Shown here piece after piece: positions 7,345-52,420 of a stretch of DNA of 64,000 nucleotides (position 1 is the stretch's first letter; every line of letters begins with the position of its first letter). The stretch is from a phage: sequence record PZ583742.1. One strand, given 5' to 3'. A program made the translations under genes and the position numbers. The notes under the pieces are model-generated. The model was not told the DNA's origin, searched no databases, and saw only the letters and a program-made list of their open reading frames with translations.

Positions 7345-7614
7345 ATGAAAACGTATCAAGAATTTTTGGCTGAATCTGTATTAAATGAATCAGATGAAAG
7401 CCGCATGGCATTTTTAGCTAAGAAAGAAGGCTTTGAGTTTACTTCTATTAAAAAAGTTAATGGAACTTCATTTAAAGTTGGTGATTGGACCTTTGGTAAC
7501 AAAGGAAGTGGCCAGTGGCAAATTGTAGATAAATCTGGTAAAGAAGTGGATTATTTGTTTAATCAGAAATTGGGTGATATCGCTAAACTTATGGGTCAAT
7601 ACTCTAAGAAATGA
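7345..7614 (+). CDS. internal protein (IP) with capsid-targeting sequence
   Basis: N-terminus MKTYQEFLAE matches T4 internal-protein capsid-targeting sequence with L-x-E protease site; sits between e and denV where T4 has ipIII/ipII. Confidence 0.65.
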   Translation: MKTYQEFLAESVLNESDESRMAFLAKKEGFEFTSIKKVNGTSFKVGDWTFGNKGSGQWQIVDKSGKEVDYLFNQKLGDIAKLMGQYSKK

Positions 7615-8135: not shown

Positions 8136-8435
8136 ATGTTAACTTATAAAGAATTTATCACAGAAGCTAAAGCTCCTAAAGCATTTCAAATCGGAGTCCA
8201 AGGTAATTTAGACCAACAATATGTTGATGCTATTGTAGCAAGCCTCGGTAAACAGGGCGTGCAAGTGGATTCGGTTGATTTTACTAAAGGCAATACTTTT
8301 AATATTGTTACATCTAAAGGTTCTTTAGCTAAAGTTAAAAAGGCCTTTGGCGTAGCACAAGCATATGAAATTGACCATTCTGAATTAGAAAATAAAGGTC
8401 GCCAGAACACAATTAAAGGTTCTGGTTCTTTCTAA
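8136..8435 (+). CDS. internal-protein-like protein with capsid-targeting-like N-terminus
   Basis: From ATG 8136 the N-terminus is MLTYKEFITEA (CTS-like, I-T-E cleavage motif); the ORF-track start at 8097 is TTG. Confidence 0.5.
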   Translation: MLTYKEFITEAKAPKAFQIGVQGNLDQQYVDAIVASLGKQGVQVDSVDFTKGNTFNIVTSKGSLAKVKKAFGVAQAYEIDHSELENKGRQNTIKGSGSF

Positions 8436-13084: not shown

Positions 13085-13360
13085 ATGATATACAAGGTTT
13101 GGACGTATATCTCTATTTTTGTTATTGCTGGGATTGCATTTATCCCCACACAAACAGATAGCGAGAGATATGAAAGGGAAATTGAAATAGTAGCAAGTAC
13201 GTACCATTCTGTTAATAAAGAATGCCCGAATAAAAATGGAATAAATTTACAAAAATCACATTATATGCTGACTGTTACTAGTCCAGTGCAAAGAATATGG
13301 GTTGATAGACATTTTTCTGATTTATTTGCAATGTATTGTTTCAAATTTAAAAGATTATAA
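13085..13360 (+). CDS. small membrane protein
   Basis: N-terminal TM segment ISIFVIAGIAFIP. Confidence 0.4.
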   Translation: MIYKVWTYISIFVIAGIAFIPTQTDSERYEREIEIVASTYHSVNKECPNKNGINLQKSHYMLTVTSPVQRIWVDRHFSDLFAMYCFKFKRL

Positions 13361-13363
13361 ATA
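13356..13363 (+). promoter_or_regulatory. T4-type late promoter TATAAATA upstream of rI
   Basis: Exact TATAAATA 72 nt upstream of rI ATG. Confidence 0.55.
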
Positions 13364-13434
13364 CAGTTACTAACTAGTATTCCGCTATGTTAAGGCTGCA
13401 AAGCGTAATCATGACCAACAATAAGGAGTCCTTT

Positions 13435-13728
13435 ATGGACCTTATTCGAGGACTTTCTCTAAGTCTATTACTAATGGGCTGTTTAGGCCCAAATATGTCC
13501 TCTGCTACAGATGGTAAATTTACCCAGTATGCAGATAGTGCGATGCAAATCTATTCGCAATTCAAAGAACCCAGCGTCGAGCAGTCCGAACAATTTTGGG
13601 CTTTTATTAAAACTGAATGGAACAATAAGAGTCAATGTGTAAATGAAATCACATGTCAAATTGATGGCCGTGCTGCTGCAGTCGAATACGCTAAATTAAT
13701 GAAGGTAAAATTGGAAGATGAAATTTGA
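13435..13728 (+). CDS. rI: lysis-inhibition regulator RI (antiholin)
   Basis: 97 aa; C-terminal half SVEQSEQFWAFIKTEW..C..AVEYAKLMKVKLEDE resembles T4 RI; exact late promoter TATAAATA at 13356-13363; RBS AAGGAG. Confidence 0.7.
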   Translation: MDLIRGLSLSLLLMGCLGPNMSSATDGKFTQYADSAMQIYSQFKEPSVEQSEQFWAFIKTEWNNKSQCVNEITCQIDGRAAAVEYAKLMKVKLEDEI

Positions 13729-45564: not shown

Positions 45565-45898
45565 TATCGATTTATCTGATTTAGATAATTTCGAGAAAGA
45601 TGCGGAGGGAGCTAAGGCTCCTTCTGTACCTTACTACGAAAAAAGTTTGGAGATTATCCGGCAATCCATGGGAACTGTACGACAGGAAATTCTGTTATCA
45701 CTCCCTGATGGGTCCAGTCACATTGTGTACGTAACCGGAATTAAAATTGAACCATCTGGAAAAGTTTCAGTTGATTTCGGCACCCCTTCTGAAGACCGCA
45801 AAGCGGAGCTTGCAGTGCATGTAGAAAAGTGTGTTACAATGCAAATACAAGATGAAATTGATAAGATTAAAATGAAAAAGAGGTGGTGGAAGTGGTAG
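45554..45898 (+). CDS. 40: gp40-like protein
   Basis: 114 aa ORF between uvsX and 41 as T4 gene 40; overlaps both neighbours. Confidence 0.55.
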   Translation: MMNDIDLSDLDNFEKDAEGAKAPSVPYYEKSLEIIRQSMGTVRQEILLSLPDGSSHIVYVTGIKIEPSGKVSVDFGTPSEDRKAELAVHVEKCVTMQIQDEIDKIKMKKRWWKW

Positions 45899-47322
45899 AA
45901 ACTATTTTATCCCAGCTACTCTTTAACAAGGAATATTTTGTTAAAGTCTGGCCATATCTGAATAATACATATTTTGAAAAGGGTCCTGCAAAGACCCTTT
46001 TTAATACGATTAACGAACACGTAAAAGAATATCAAGCGGTACCAACTAAGACTGCACTTGATATCGCGCTCGACAGTTCTGACCTTTCTGAAGTCGAATA
46101 TGAAGGCACAAAGAAACTCTTAGGAGTCCTGGCCGATACTCCAGAAGACCAGGAATGGTTGGTTAAAGAAACCGAGAAGTATGTACAGAAGTCTGCGATG
46201 TTCAATGCCACATCCAGGATTATCGAAATCCAGAGTAATGCCGAACTTCCGAAAGATAAACGTGATAAACGAATCCCGGATATTGGTGCTATCACCGACA
46301 TCATGCGCGATGCATTGTCTATCTGTTTTGACTCTGCTCTGGGCCATGACTGGTTAAACGATTACGAAGCTCGATTCCAGACTTATCTGAACAAATCGAA
46401 GAAGGTTCCGTTCCGTATTAACATCCTGAATAAAATCACAAAGGGTGGGGTTGAGTACGGTACAGAGAACGTTTTACTGGCTGGGACAAACGTCGGCAAA
46501 TCCCTTGGACTTTGTTCGTTAGCGGCTGACTATCTTCAGACTGGTCATAACGTGCTTTATATAAGCATGGAAATGGCTGAAGAAGTATGTGCCAAACGTA
46601 TTGATGCCAACTTGCTGGATGTATCTCTGGATGATATTGATGAAGGTCATGTGTCATGGGCAGAATACAAAAGTAAGATGGAAAAATGGCGCGCAGCCGG
46701 GACTCTTGGGACTCTGAAGATAAAACAATATCCAACTGGTGGTGCTCATGCGGATACCTTCCGTGCATTATTGAATGAATACAAACTGAAACAAGGGTTT
46801 GTGCCGGATGTGATTATTGTTGACTACCTGGCAATCTGTGCAAGCTCAAGATTGAAAACGTTTACCGAAAACAGTTACGGCCTGATTAAAATGGTTGCAG
46901 AAGAACTTCGTGGCCTGGCGGTCGAGAAAAATGTGGTCCTGTGGACTGCAGCACAGACAACCAGGGGCGCGAACGTTGCAGCTGAGATTGATATGGCTGA
47001 CATTGCAGAATCCTTTGGTATTGCTCACACGGCCGATTTTATGTTGGGTGTTGTTGAGACTGAAGAATTCGCTCAAATGGGTCTGCAGTTAATCAAACAG
47101 CTTAAGTCTCGTTATGGTGATAAGAACTACTATAATAAATTCAAGATGGGTGTTAAGAAAGGTAATCAGCGCTGGTATGAGGTTGATGATGATTCGGCTC
47201 CTAAACAAGGCCCTACGGTTAAAGAAGCCACTGGTGAGATGAATCGCCAGGCTGAAATGAATAGACAAACCAGGGTCAACAGGAGCGACCTGGACGACCT
47301 TGCTGCTCAAATGAAATTCTAA
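45892..47322 (+). CDS. 41: replicative DNA helicase gp41 (DnaB-like)
   Basis: From GTG 45892 the N-terminus is MVETILSQLLFNKEYFVKVWPYL (T4 MVEIILSHLIFDQAYFSKVWPYM); Walker A GTNVGKSLG; HNVLYISMEMAEEVCAKRIDAN; ORF-track start is 45883. Confidence 0.95.
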   Translation: MVETILSQLLFNKEYFVKVWPYLNNTYFEKGPAKTLFNTINEHVKEYQAVPTKTALDIALDSSDLSEVEYEGTKKLLGVLADTPEDQEWLVKETEKYVQKSAMFNATSRIIEIQSNAELPKDKRDKRIPDIGAITDIMRDALSICFDSALGHDWLNDYEARFQTYLNKSKKVPFRINILNKITKGGVEYGTENVLLAGTNVGKSLGLCSLAADYLQTGHNVLYISMEMAEEVCAKRIDANLLDVSLDDIDEGHVSWAEYKSKMEKWRAAGTLGTLKIKQYPTGGAHADTFRALLNEYKLKQGFVPDVIIVDYLAICASSRLKTFTENSYGLIKMVAEELRGLAVEKNVVLWTAAQTTRGANVAAEIDMADIAESFGIAHTADFMLGVVETEEFAQMGLQLIKQLKSRYGDKNYYNKFKMGVKKGNQRWYEVDDDSAPKQGPTVKEATGEMNRQAEMNRQTRVNRSDLDDLAAQMKF

Positions 47323-50242: not shown

Positions 50243-50408
50243 GATTTCTGTCTTCCAGATTTTTGAAGAATATGAAATCGTATCGCAAGACCAAGAAGCA
50301 ATCCATGTTATCGCTGATGATGGTGTTACCTGGATTATTCCGTTGTATCATGAAGACACTTATGAAGTGACTGATGCAAATGGTGATAAAGCTATCTTCG
50401 TTGTATAA
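50217..50408 (+). CDS. hypothetical protein
   Basis: ORF overlapping upstream end. Confidence 0.4.
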   Translation: MSAMCTGSKISVFQIFEEYEIVSQDQEAIHVIADDGVTWIIPLYHEDTYEVTDANGDKAIFVV

Positions 50409-50411
50409 ATA
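50404..50411 (+). promoter_or_regulatory. T4-type late promoter TATAAATA upstream of CTS-bearing small gene
   Basis: Exact TATAAATA 17 nt upstream of ATG 50428. Confidence 0.55.
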
Positions 50412-50427
50412 GCGGAAAGGGGGTGTT

Positions 50428-50595
50428 ATGAAAACATTCAAAGATTTTATCAACGAAAATATGGTTGCCGGTGATGCGGGTGGAAACCCAACTAATATCG
50501 CAACAGGTACCACTTCCGGGGCAGTTGTCAATAAAGGCCCTGAACAAATCCCATCAAAAAAGCGTAAGAACAAAGACGATAAACCTACAGTATAA
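50428..50595 (+). CDS. small internal-protein-like protein with capsid-targeting sequence (55 aa)
   Basis: N-terminus MKTFKDFINE (CTS-like, I-N-E protease site); exact late promoter TATAAATA at 50404-50411; RBS AAAGGGGG; below ORF-track size cutoff. Confidence 0.55.
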   Translation: MKTFKDFINENMVAGDAGGNPTNIATGTTSGAVVNKGPEQIPSKKRKNKDDKPTV

Positions 50596-50627
50596 TGGTC
50601 CTTCGGGGCCATTGAAATGAGGAAACT

Positions 50628-51656
50628 ATGTCATATATTGATAAAGAATTTGCAGTCAGAGCTTTATCGTATCAACCACGTTATAGAGAAGTCACCGGGA
50701 GCACATTTAAAGCAAACTGTCGTTGCAAGGTTTGTGGGGACTCCCAGAAAGATTCACACAAGGCTCGATTCTGGGCGTATACTAATCCGACTGATGGCGC
50801 GGTTTACGTGAAATGTTTTAACTGTGACTACTCCACGCATATAAGCAAATACATAAAAGAGTTTGAGCCGGATTTACACCGGGAATATATGGTTGAGAAG
50901 TATAAGGAGAATGCATTTGGGCGACAACGCACTGAAGTTGCAGAAGCTCCGAAAGAACCAGAAAAAACTCCGGTTATTGAGCAGCTTGCTTTTTGTGAAA
51001 GACTCGATACTTTACCAGAAGCACATCCGATAATTAAGTATGTAAAAAGTCGGTGTATTCCGAGCAATGTTTGGAACCGGTTATGGTTTACAAACAAATG
51101 GCCTGCATTAGTTAACTCCGTTAATCCTGGGACGTATAAGAATGAAACGAATGAACCACGCTTGGTTATTCCTATCTTCAACGGCAAAAAAGAAATCGAA
51201 TCTTTCCAAGGACGAGCTCTTCGCAAAGATGCACCACAAAAATATATCACAATCAAAGCTCACCCAGAAGCTTCCAAAGTCTATGGCGTAGACAAGATTG
51301 ATGAGCGTAAACGCGTATGGGTAATGGAAGGTCCAATTGATAGTTTGTTTATCCCTAACAGCATTGCGATAACCGGTGGAACATTAGCATTGGAAGCTGT
51401 TCCTTACCCAGAAACCAGAGTATGGGTGATGGATTCAGAAGCAAGACATCCTGATACGATTAAACGTATGAAGAAATTAGTCGATGCAGGAGAAGCTGTT
51501 ATGTTCTGGGACAACGCACCGTGGCATACGAAAGATATAAATGAAATGATTAAATCGGAAGGAGCAACGCCTGAGCAAATTGAAGCCTATATGAATGATA
51601 ATATTGCACAAGGTTTAATGGCAAAACTTCGATTATCCAAATATGCAAAAATATGA
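50628..51656 (+). CDS. 61: DNA primase gp61
   Basis: N-terminal zinc ribbon CRCKVCGDS..x..CFNCDYS; TOPRIM-like VWVMEGPIDSLF; size and neighbourhood as T4 gp61. Confidence 0.9.
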   Translation: MSYIDKEFAVRALSYQPRYREVTGSTFKANCRCKVCGDSQKDSHKARFWAYTNPTDGAVYVKCFNCDYSTHISKYIKEFEPDLHREYMVEKYKENAFGRQRTEVAEAPKEPEKTPVIEQLAFCERLDTLPEAHPIIKYVKSRCIPSNVWNRLWFTNKWPALVNSVNPGTYKNETNEPRLVIPIFNGKKEIESFQGRALRKDAPQKYITIKAHPEASKVYGVDKIDERKRVWVMEGPIDSLFIPNSIAITGGTLALEAVPYPETRVWVMDSEARHPDTIKRMKKLVDAGEAVMFWDNAPWHTKDINEMIKSEGATPEQIEAYMNDNIAQGLMAKLRLSKYAKI

Positions 51657-52420
51657 ATTATCTAAAATTATATAATAAATTAATAGACAAAGGCCTCGCA
51701 AGGGGCCTAAACAAAAAGAATATCCCATTTTATACGGAGTCCCATCATATACTACCAAGGTGTTTGGGTGGACCTGACACCGAAGATAATTTGGTATTGT
51801 TATCAGCAAGAGAACATTTTATTGCACATTTGTTACTTTTTAAAATTTATCGACTTTCTAAATTAATGTTTGCTATACACCGGATGTGCGGTGACAAATT
51901 TGATAGCGCAAAATATGAATGGATGCGAAAAGAACATAGTAAAGCCGTTAGTGAACATATGTCAAACTTATGGAGTCAATCCGAGTTTAAAGACAAAATG
52001 TTAATTGCTTTACACAAGCGACATAACGACCACCCTGTGTCTGATAAAACCAAAAGTAAAATAGCTAACTCATTAAAATTGTATTATCAAAATAATCCAG
52101 TTACTGATGAACAACGGCAAAAGAATCGCGATGCACAAATGAGAAGATTTAAAGAAAATCCGCAAACCGAAGAAACGAAAAAGTTGCGGCGAGAAGCATG
52201 CCGAAAGGCAACTGGAACACCGGTTTGTAGATGCGATGAATTTGGTAATATACTTGAAAAGTATAATTCGGGAGCTGAGGCAAAGGAATTATTACAATTG
52301 GCGGGCAATACTCAAAATATATACACAGCTTGTAAAAGAAATAAAAAGACAGGCCGAATGTATAGGTCAAACGGCCATTTTTGGAAGTATCAAGACGAGG
52401 AAGGGATTCCGGTAAAGTAA
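51653..52420 (+). CDS. HNH homing endonuclease (Mob-like)
   Basis: HNH motif ESHHILPRCLGGPDTEDNLVLLSAREHFIAH; start overlaps gene 61 stop (ATGA); basic repeat-containing C-terminal half. Confidence 0.75.
   Translation: MNYLKLYNKLIDKGLARGLNKKNIPFYTESHHILPRCLGGPDTEDNLVLLSAREHFIAHLLLFKIYRLSKLMFAIHRMCGDKFDSAKYEWMRKEHSKAVSEHMSNLWSQSEFKDKMLIALHKRHNDHPVSDKTKSKIANSLKLYYQNNPVTDEQRQKNRDAQMRRFKENPQTEETKKLRREACRKATGTPVCRCDEFGNILEKYNSGAEAKELLQLAGNTQNIYTACKRNKKTGRMYRSNGHFWKYQDEEGIPVK

Follow-up and report, generated by a model that had tools for sequence, protein, structure and literature searches.

The window (the whole 64,000-nucleotide stretch of phage DNA analysed here, record PZ583742.1) carries on its plus strand a 55-aa ORF at positions 50428..50595, which translates as MKTFKDFINENMVAGDAGGNPTNIATGTTSGAVVNKGPEQIPSKKRKNKDDKPTV. 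The ORF had been proposed in a sequence-only reading of the window and is confirmed here as real; ORFs that overlap it on the opposite strand or in another frame have zero family matches. The interval proposed at that time, 50404-50595, gives the end of the gene correctly, whereas its start is the first base of an upstream promoter motif and the ATG is located at 50428. The product is composed of three consecutive parts, all encoded on the plus strand. Residues 1-10, MKTFKDFINE (50428..50457), form a propeptide that resembles a capsid-targeting sequence (CTS) and ends in a putative I-x-E cleavage motif. [quoted passage not shown] Residues 39-55, EQIPSKKRKNKDDKPTV (50542..50592), constitute a Lys/Arg-rich tail.

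The ORF is preceded by TATAAATA (50404..50411, plus strand), an exact copy of the T4-type late promoter -10 motif and a putative promoter here. The motif overlaps the stop codon of an upstream 63-aa ORF (PHROG 3249), and 16 nt, not the 17 nt given before, separate it from the ATG. A purine-rich ribosome-binding site, AAAGGGGG, can be read from the sequence at 50416..50423 (plus strand), 4 nt before the ATG; its earlier description as strong is generous, since the site is not a canonical GGAGG. On the 3' side, an RNA hairpin with a UUCG loop (50593..50614, plus strand) extends from the stop codon to a point before the ribosome-binding site of the primase gene 61 (50628..51656, plus strand), the conserved downstream neighbour. 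The helicase gene 41 is found at 45883-47322 of the window. An Rfam scan of the locus returned nothing credible.

The PHROG 1823 match and the annotation of relatives identify the ORF as the ortholog, in Gaprivervirus, of T4 gene 61.1. PHROG 1823, a family without assigned function, matches residues 1-52 (E 6.6e-32), and the C-terminal 45 positions of PHROG 2086, which comprises longer forms of the protein, match as well (E 2.8e-16). The window is 95-99% identical to the Gaprivervirus phages DK-13, VR20, RZ, SP18, and VR7, and the ortholog bears the label 61.1 in VR7, SP18, RB14, RB69, and Aeromonas 65. T4 gp61.1 (NP_049649; MKTFKEFIKEDMVAGDSGGNPENISIGTTSGAVVNKGPEQIPKKKKEESKEKEE) belongs to the same length class and is encoded, like the window protein, directly 5' of primase gene 61. 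The first 10 residues of the two proteins are 80% identical, and they have the core MVAGDxGGNPxNIxxGTTSGAVVNKGPEQIP in common, with residues 11-36 reading NMVAGDAGGNPTNIATGTTSGAVVNK in the window protein and DMVAGDSGGNPENISIGTTSGAVVNK in T4. In contrast, the tail is net basic in the window protein and acidic in T4, and the exact TATAAATA upstream and the UUCG hairpin after the stop codon, both features of the Gaprivervirus lineage, are absent from T4.

A search with the window protein (tblastn) finds matches in 1518 phage records. The order with gene 41 upstream and gene 61 downstream of 61.1 is observed in the window, VR7, T4, RB69, Acinetobacter, 44RR, and Aeromonas 65, and also in Dhakavirus, Jiaodavirus, Krischvirus, and Lw1. 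No further gene lies between them in 44RR and Aeromonas 65 (41 - 61.1 - 61), and a metagenomic contig shows the order pol - uvsX - 41 - 61.1. The location, which the sequence-only reading had considered unusual, is in fact the canonical position of gene 61.1 directly upstream of the primase gene.

Gene 61.1 is thus already known and annotated as a hypothetical protein. The literature found on gp61.1 or "61.1" consists of annotation tables only, without discussion of a similarity to gp23, a CTS-like start, or a function, and no function assignment was found in the sources searched. A T4 genome-evolution review, an SPN3US/T4 mass-spectrometry paper, a Morganella phage proteome, and HIDEN-seq do not mention the protein. 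In the 2025 CRISPRi-ART tables, gp61.1 is listed as a protein of unknown function, and knock-down of 61.1 in T4 gave a score of -0.84 ("Not Fit"), meaning no fitness cost and a non-essential gene.

Three copies of TATAAATA are present in the 64-kb window, all on the plus strand, compared with 5.3 expected by chance. One of them precedes soc, a known late gene. The third copy (13356-13363, plus strand) is located 23 nt 5' of a 113-aa ORF (13387-13728) with a hydrophobic, signal-peptide-like N-terminal region, which may be another late-promoter gene inside an early region.

Upstream of 61.1, the exact motif is found at -24 in the window and in VR7 and at -21 in Dhakavirus IME281, despite different flanks. 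Versions with one mismatch are seen in Jiaodavirus (AATAAATA), T4 (TATGAATA), and an Acinetobacter phage (CATAAATA), and no similar motif precedes 61.1 in RB69, 44RR, Aeromonas 65, Krischvirus, or Lw1. Among the lineages compared, an exact late promoter motif upstream of 61.1 is therefore confined, as far as the sequences tell, to Gaprivervirus and Dhakavirus. In the sub-lineage of the window the late promoter is probably real, yet it is not a defining feature of gene 61.1. If transcription starts about 6 nt 3' of the motif, as we infer, the leader would be about 11 nt long. In T4, the 61.1 transcript is classed as early, and gp61.1 was not detected in an infection time-course proteome. The T4 ipII and ipIII transcripts are likewise classed as early, so early transcription of 61.1 is no argument against packaging of its product; neither ip gene has a proximal TATAAATA.

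The hairpin behind 61.1 in the window is formed by 9 bp and has a predicted energy of -11.8 kcal/mol (z -2.15). It is not a typical intrinsic terminator, because no T run is present. Stable hairpins occur at this place, after the 61.1 stop codon and ahead of the primase ribosome-binding site, in eight lineages, with stems that differ in sequence (GGUCC/GGGCC, GGCCUUA/UAAGGCC, GGAACC/GGUUCC, GGGGUC/GACCCC, and GGCUCUA/UAGAGCC). Those of Aeromonas 65 and Acinetobacter are followed by a T run and are terminator-like. T4 lacks a hairpin, and only 2 nt separate its 61.1 stop codon from the ATG of gene 61. Possible functions of the hairpin are stabilisation of the mRNA or attenuation of primase expression.

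[quoted passage not shown] In almost every one of the phage records matched by tblastn, two places are hit: one is gene 61.1, the other the 5' end of the gene for the major capsid protein. In a phmmer search against the PDB, residues 3-41 of gp61.1 align with residues 58-96 of T4 gp23 (E 6.5e-5), and the family profile aligns with residues 58-94 (E 8.7e-6). The matched stretch of gp23 comprises the end of the propeptide (AFGSFLTE65), the LTE65|A66 cleavage site, and the N-fist. In the alignment, 61.1 reads tFkdFInE|nmvAGDaGgNpTNIAtGtTSGAVvnkGP and gp23 reads aFgsFLtE|aeiGGDhGyNaTNIAaGqTSGAVtqiGP, where the bar shows the position after Glu65 at which gp23 is cut during maturation. Five gp23 proteins, like all gp23 comparison sequences taken from phage records, share 62-67% identity with the window protein over an ungapped core of 24 residues, and the consensus residues of 61.1 and gp23 are the same in 15 of the 24 columns. 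Residues His3, Tyr5, Thr20, and Ile22 of the core, which are invariant in gp23, are replaced in 61.1 by Ser/Ala, Gly, Val, and Lys, respectively. In one long-form member of the 61.1 family, the match to gp23 extends into GPAAMGM.

On the strength of these alignments, gp61.1 is a free-standing mini-paralog of the cleavage-site and N-fist stretch of gp23. The two proteins are homologous over about 39 residues, and in both the GD...NIA.G.TSGAV...GP core stands at the same distance from the Glu that is cleaved in gp23. Unlike gp23, gp61.1 has no HK97-fold body and no match to Pfam PF07068, and it carries the Lys/Arg tail where gp23 has its N-arm. The AlphaFold2 model of gp61.1 is coil (pTM 0.16), and thus no fold of its own is predicted; with its 55 residues and no Pfam match, the protein shows no HK97-like capsid fold. 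It is not a capsid protein, and the automatic GenBank and UniProt names given to the ORF ("major capsid (domain-containing) protein") are misleading, although they indicate that the pipelines detected the similarity to gp23.

The window 61.1 is no closer to the gp23 of VR7 than to other gp23 proteins, which argues that 61.1 and gp23 represent two old paralog classes. We considered recent gene conversion or co-evolution and rejected both on the same grounds. A Gol/Lit decoy role was also rejected, since the Gol peptide is located downstream of gp23 residue 93 and hence beyond the homologous stretch.

In the T4 head, gp23 residues 66-91 form the so-called N-fist, which is disordered inside the unexpanded prohead and externalised on expansion. 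The N-fist contacts four subunits and helps to form the Soc site, and it is absent from gp24 (PMC7136217, PMC9546572, PMC9958956). The head-length mutations A66D, A94V, and G97S of gp23 flank the stretch homologous to gp61.1 and have been read as affecting a contact with the gp22 scaffolding core (PMC9546572).

The resemblance of the N-terminus to the T4-type CTS, which had been noticed before, is borne out. MKTFKDFINE shares 6 of its 10 residues with MKTYQEFIAE, the start of ipII and ipIII as read from the T4 genome. According to Mullaney and Black (summarised in PMC9026906), positions 4 and 7 of the CTS serve targeting, and positions 8 and 10 serve processing; the window protein has Phe4 and Phe7 at the former and Ile8 and Glu10 at the latter. 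We scanned the ATG starts in all six frames of the window that are followed by at least 40 codons for the pattern M-x-x-h-x-x-h-h-x-E (h, hydrophobic). Only 3 of 781 starts fit, namely 61.1 and the internal-head-protein genes at 7345 and 8136, so the match is not due to chance. By this pattern, the CTS-like N-terminus of the window protein is real and specific. A scan of IMG/VR for the N-terminal coding pattern matched VR20, VR25, and VR26 only. The predicted L/I-x-E cleavage motif is likewise present, as I-N-E, at a hydrophobic-x-Glu junction that is near-universal in the family.

Both internal-head-protein genes are on the plus strand. The first (7345-7614; 89 aa, PHROG 8765) starts with MKTYQEFLAE, and the second (8136-8435; 99 aa, PHROG 2667) starts with MLTYKEFITE, its start being placed at an upstream TTG (8097) in the ORF listing. 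Both belong to PHROG families described as "internal virion/head protein", flank denV, and adjoin the lysozyme gene e, as do ipIII and ipII in T4.

The T4 internal proteins IPI, IPII, and IPIII share with gp61.1 the motif M-K-T-aromatic-x-x-F-[I/L]-x-E, including the four mapped positions, and are also small and non-essential. The mature parts of the internal proteins are hypervariable, whereas the core of gp61.1 is highly conserved; 61.1 is located outside the ip loci, at a fixed position, in a phage that has its own ip genes; and in most relatives of 61.1 the motif is internal, following a domain of about 100 aa. In comparison with the internal proteins, packaging and cleavage of gp61.1 are candidate properties that the motif suggests. 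A similar layout is found in the T4 vertex protein gp24, a full capsid-fold protein unlike gp61.1, whose propeptide MAKINELLRE also follows M-x-x-h-x-x-h-h-x-E and ends at residue 10. gp24 is cleaved at this end of the propeptide, and its annotation reads "cleaved by gp21".

A profile search of 1.8 billion representative proteins returned 54 relatives of gp61.1, and together with annotated phage proteins 61 members were examined. The residue equivalent to gp23 Glu65 (P1) is Glu in all 61. The P3 residue is Leu or Ile in 38 of the 61 and one of Leu, Ile, Val, Met, or Phe in 56, compared with a background of 3.5% for the motif inside the propeptides. The segment before the junction, here called the propeptide, ranges from about 5 to about 140 aa, with 20 aa or fewer in 26 members and more in the remaining 35. 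Across the family, half of the 12 residues C-terminal to the core are Lys or Arg (50%). The core is kept in phages of E. coli and other Enterobacteria, Klebsiella, Acinetobacter, Aeromonas, and Vibrio, and judged from these sequences its degree of conservation is close to that of the capsid protein.

In the T-even short form, only about 10 residues, CTS-like in character, precede the junction. The long forms of Acinetobacter (158 aa), Lw1 (163 aa), and Aeromonas 65 (121 aa) have a conserved domain of about 100 aa at this place. The models show it as helical, with moderate to high confidence, and no Pfam match and no informative match to a solved fold were found for it. Scans of short and long forms against Pfam and NCBIfam gave no matches. 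Because the motif is internal in the long forms, the N-terminal CTS is not a family-wide feature; the invariant elements are the cleavage-type junction, the N-fist-like core, and the Lys/Arg tail. The predicted mature 45-mer has a pI of 9.7 in the window phage. That of T4 is acidic (pI 5.0), which weakens the case for a general DNA-binding role.

In RB69, a frameshift splits a long-form 61.1 into ORF032c and the annotated gp61.1 (905-1371 of the RB69 locus, L003). ORF032c corresponds to residues 1-51 of the long form of Citrobacter phage CkP1, and RB69 gp61.1 to residues 63-154; the split may reflect a decaying N-terminal domain, an error in the sequence, or programmed frameshifting. Among seven metagenomic relatives, some have a second K-x-F-x-E-F-V after the basic tail, and some also continue C-terminally for about 100 aa, in a stretch that these members have in common and that is either a fused second cistron or a true longer architecture. 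A BFVD fold search with the long-form model retrieved phage proteins of 387-913 aa at 26-36% identity, suggesting that the long-form N-terminal domain may also occur inside much larger phage proteins.

We propose, with a probability of roughly 45%, that gp61.1 is a substrate of the prohead protease gp21 and that contacts of the gp23-like or CTS-like kind bring it into the prohead. In this proposal, which is drawn from sequence comparison, the disordered protein would use its gp23-like segment to bind the gp22 scaffolding core, the prohead partner of the gp23 N-terminus, and in T-even phages the 10-residue CTS-like N-terminus would add to this binding. Having been co-assembled into proheads, gp61.1 would be cut by gp21 after Glu10 (I-N-E|N). 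The product would be a basic peptide of 45 residues and 4.6 kDa, which could stay with the DNA or be released. In the Gaprivervirus lineage, the extra late promoter and the 3' hairpin would make up a small late expression cassette that raises synthesis during head building.

Several observations are compatible with this proposal: the orthology and fixed position of the gene, the homology with residues 58-96 of gp23, a junction that stays invariant while the propeptide varies in length, the lack of an own fold, an N-terminal pattern that is common in the window only to two internal head proteins, and the exact TATAAATA in two genera. The known specificity of gp21, which cuts after I/L-x-E, agrees with the junction, and the non-essentiality of T4 61.1 fits an accessory head component. 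The head-length mutations of gp23, with the scaffold contact read from them, point the same way. Against the proposal, gp61.1 is not one of the nine T4 head proteins in which processing, at 13 sites in total, is known, it escaped detection in the T4 time-course proteome, and we found no virion proteomics reporting it in the literature. In addition, 61.1 is located in the early replication cluster, and T4 and most lineages have no proximal late promoter. T4 gp21 also cleaves the loop of a cytosolic CD-NTase at I/LxE, thereby triggering CBASS (PMC12991175). Disordered cytosolic proteins are thus cleaved too, and a conserved cleavage motif is no proof of encapsidation; the junction could instead have been conserved for a role in structure or binding that was taken over from gp23.

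The cleavage of a CD-NTase activation loop (PMC12991175) also speaks for a second explanation, which ranks first among the alternatives and which we regard as unlikely: gp61.1 may be a cytoplasmic substrate mimic or regulator of gp21 and need not enter the head. By occupying free or prematurely active gp21, it would time maturation or divert the protease from host sensors such as CBASS CD-NTases. The invariant hydrophobic-x-Glu junction, the disorder of the protein, and its early transcript in T4 all agree with such a role, and T4-like phages already encode one gp21 inhibitor, Inh. This explanation does not account for the 25-residue N-fist-like core and the Lys/Arg tail, which are conserved past the cleavage site. 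Furthermore, a substrate that is consumed is a weak inhibitor, no phenotype is known, and knock-down was neutral on a host without a relevant CBASS. The argument is inferential throughout.

Lower in rank, and doubtful, is a broader version of the same idea, in which the whole cleavage-site and N-fist stretch of gp23 is imitated. Here gp61.1 would be a decoy controlling the place and timing of gp21 activity, or else a small part of the T4 head, with a structural or maturation function, that has escaped notice so far. As a decoy retained by almost all T4-like phages other than cyanophages, it would in particular protect the infection from host immune sensors that gp21 cleavage triggers (CBASS CD-NTase "tripwires"), which would tie gp61.1 to recent findings on immune sensing of phage proteases. 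A corollary is that the CTS of the internal proteins would itself mimic the end of the gp23 propeptide, gp61.1 providing the connection between CTS and propeptide.

The properties of the N-fist suggest a role in the capsid lattice, which we consider less likely again. In this case gp61.1, cleaved or not, would act as a free N-fist that docks, inside or outside, on the gp23 surfaces that receive a neighbour's N-fist, or competes with the N-termini of gp23 for the scaffold; nucleation, head length, expansion, or Soc binding would be affected. The four-subunit contacts of the N-fist and its part in the Soc site, its disorder at the portal vertex, and its absence from gp24 leave room for such a modulator (PMC7136217, PMC9546572, PMC9958956), and the head-length mutations flank the homologous stretch. 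The records with gene 61.1 and those with a canonical N-fist in gp23 are about the same 1,500 phage records; the gp23 of cyanophages matches the stretch poorly, and no cyanophage is among the organism groups that top the 61.1 search. This shared distribution, however, is confounded by phylogeny. In the literature searched on T4 head structures (~3.3 Å), no unassigned N-fist-like density is reported, the gp24 N-terminus is described as making equivalent contacts at the vertices, and the four core residues invariant in gp23 differ in 61.1.

Given where the gene is located, a function in replication also has to be weighed; it comes after the lattice role and appears improbable. The protein would be an accessory of the primosome, or its gene an upstream cistron that sets primase expression, and the similarity to gp23 would be a relic without head function. 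The location between helicase gene 41 and primase gene 61 is conserved, with 61.1 as the sole gene between them in 44RR and Aeromonas 65. In T4 the distance to the primase gene is 2 nt, and elsewhere a hairpin precedes the primase ribosome-binding site. The Lys/Arg tail is also compatible with this role. Position is nevertheless weak evidence, because the head gene 40 is in the cluster too, next to gene 41. Purifying selection is directed at exactly the capsid-like core and the cleavage-type junction, which a relic would not have kept over the family's whole history, and a late promoter gained by two genera is at odds with a role in replication.

The worst-fitting explanation is the one favoured by the sequence-only reading, an effector of the IPI type that is packaged, cleaved, and injected against host restriction or defence: the CTS-like N-terminus, the small size, the basic mature part in the window phage, and the non-essentiality in the laboratory host speak for it, but we hold it to be very unlikely, since the core is conserved about as well as the capsid protein, from Vibrio to Acinetobacter hosts and at a fixed locus, which argues against a fast-evolving effector, and since the mature peptide is predicted by AlphaFold2 to have no fold, unlike IPI*, which is a folded inhibitor. 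To our knowledge, there is no PADLOC-type or anti-defence annotation of gp61.1. Internal proteins are poorly conserved and encoded in variable loci (PMC9026906).

T4 is the reference system for head assembly, and gp61.1 is encoded in roughly 1,500 sequenced T4-like genomes. What is new here, as read from the alignments, is that gp61.1 is a mini-paralog of the gp23 cleavage site and N-fist which, in T-even phages, carries an N-terminus of the CTS type. The paralogy turns an anonymous ORF into a sharp and directly testable hypothesis. If it is processed as we propose, gp61.1 would be the tenth substrate of the T4 protease, and the correspondence of gp23 F59/F62/L63/E65 with CTS Y4/F7/I8/E10 would suggest that the CTS works by imitating the end of the gp23 propeptide. 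This idea bears on the use of CTS tags for loading cargo into T4 heads.

A further ORF of 255 aa is located on the other side of the primase gene (51653-52420, plus strand), between gene 61 and a homolog of gene 56 (dCTP pyrophosphatase). HNH-type motifs (HHILPR...) are recognizable in it by eye, and VR7 has a small opposite-strand ORF alone at this place. The 255-aa ORF is likely a mobile homing endonuclease insertion.
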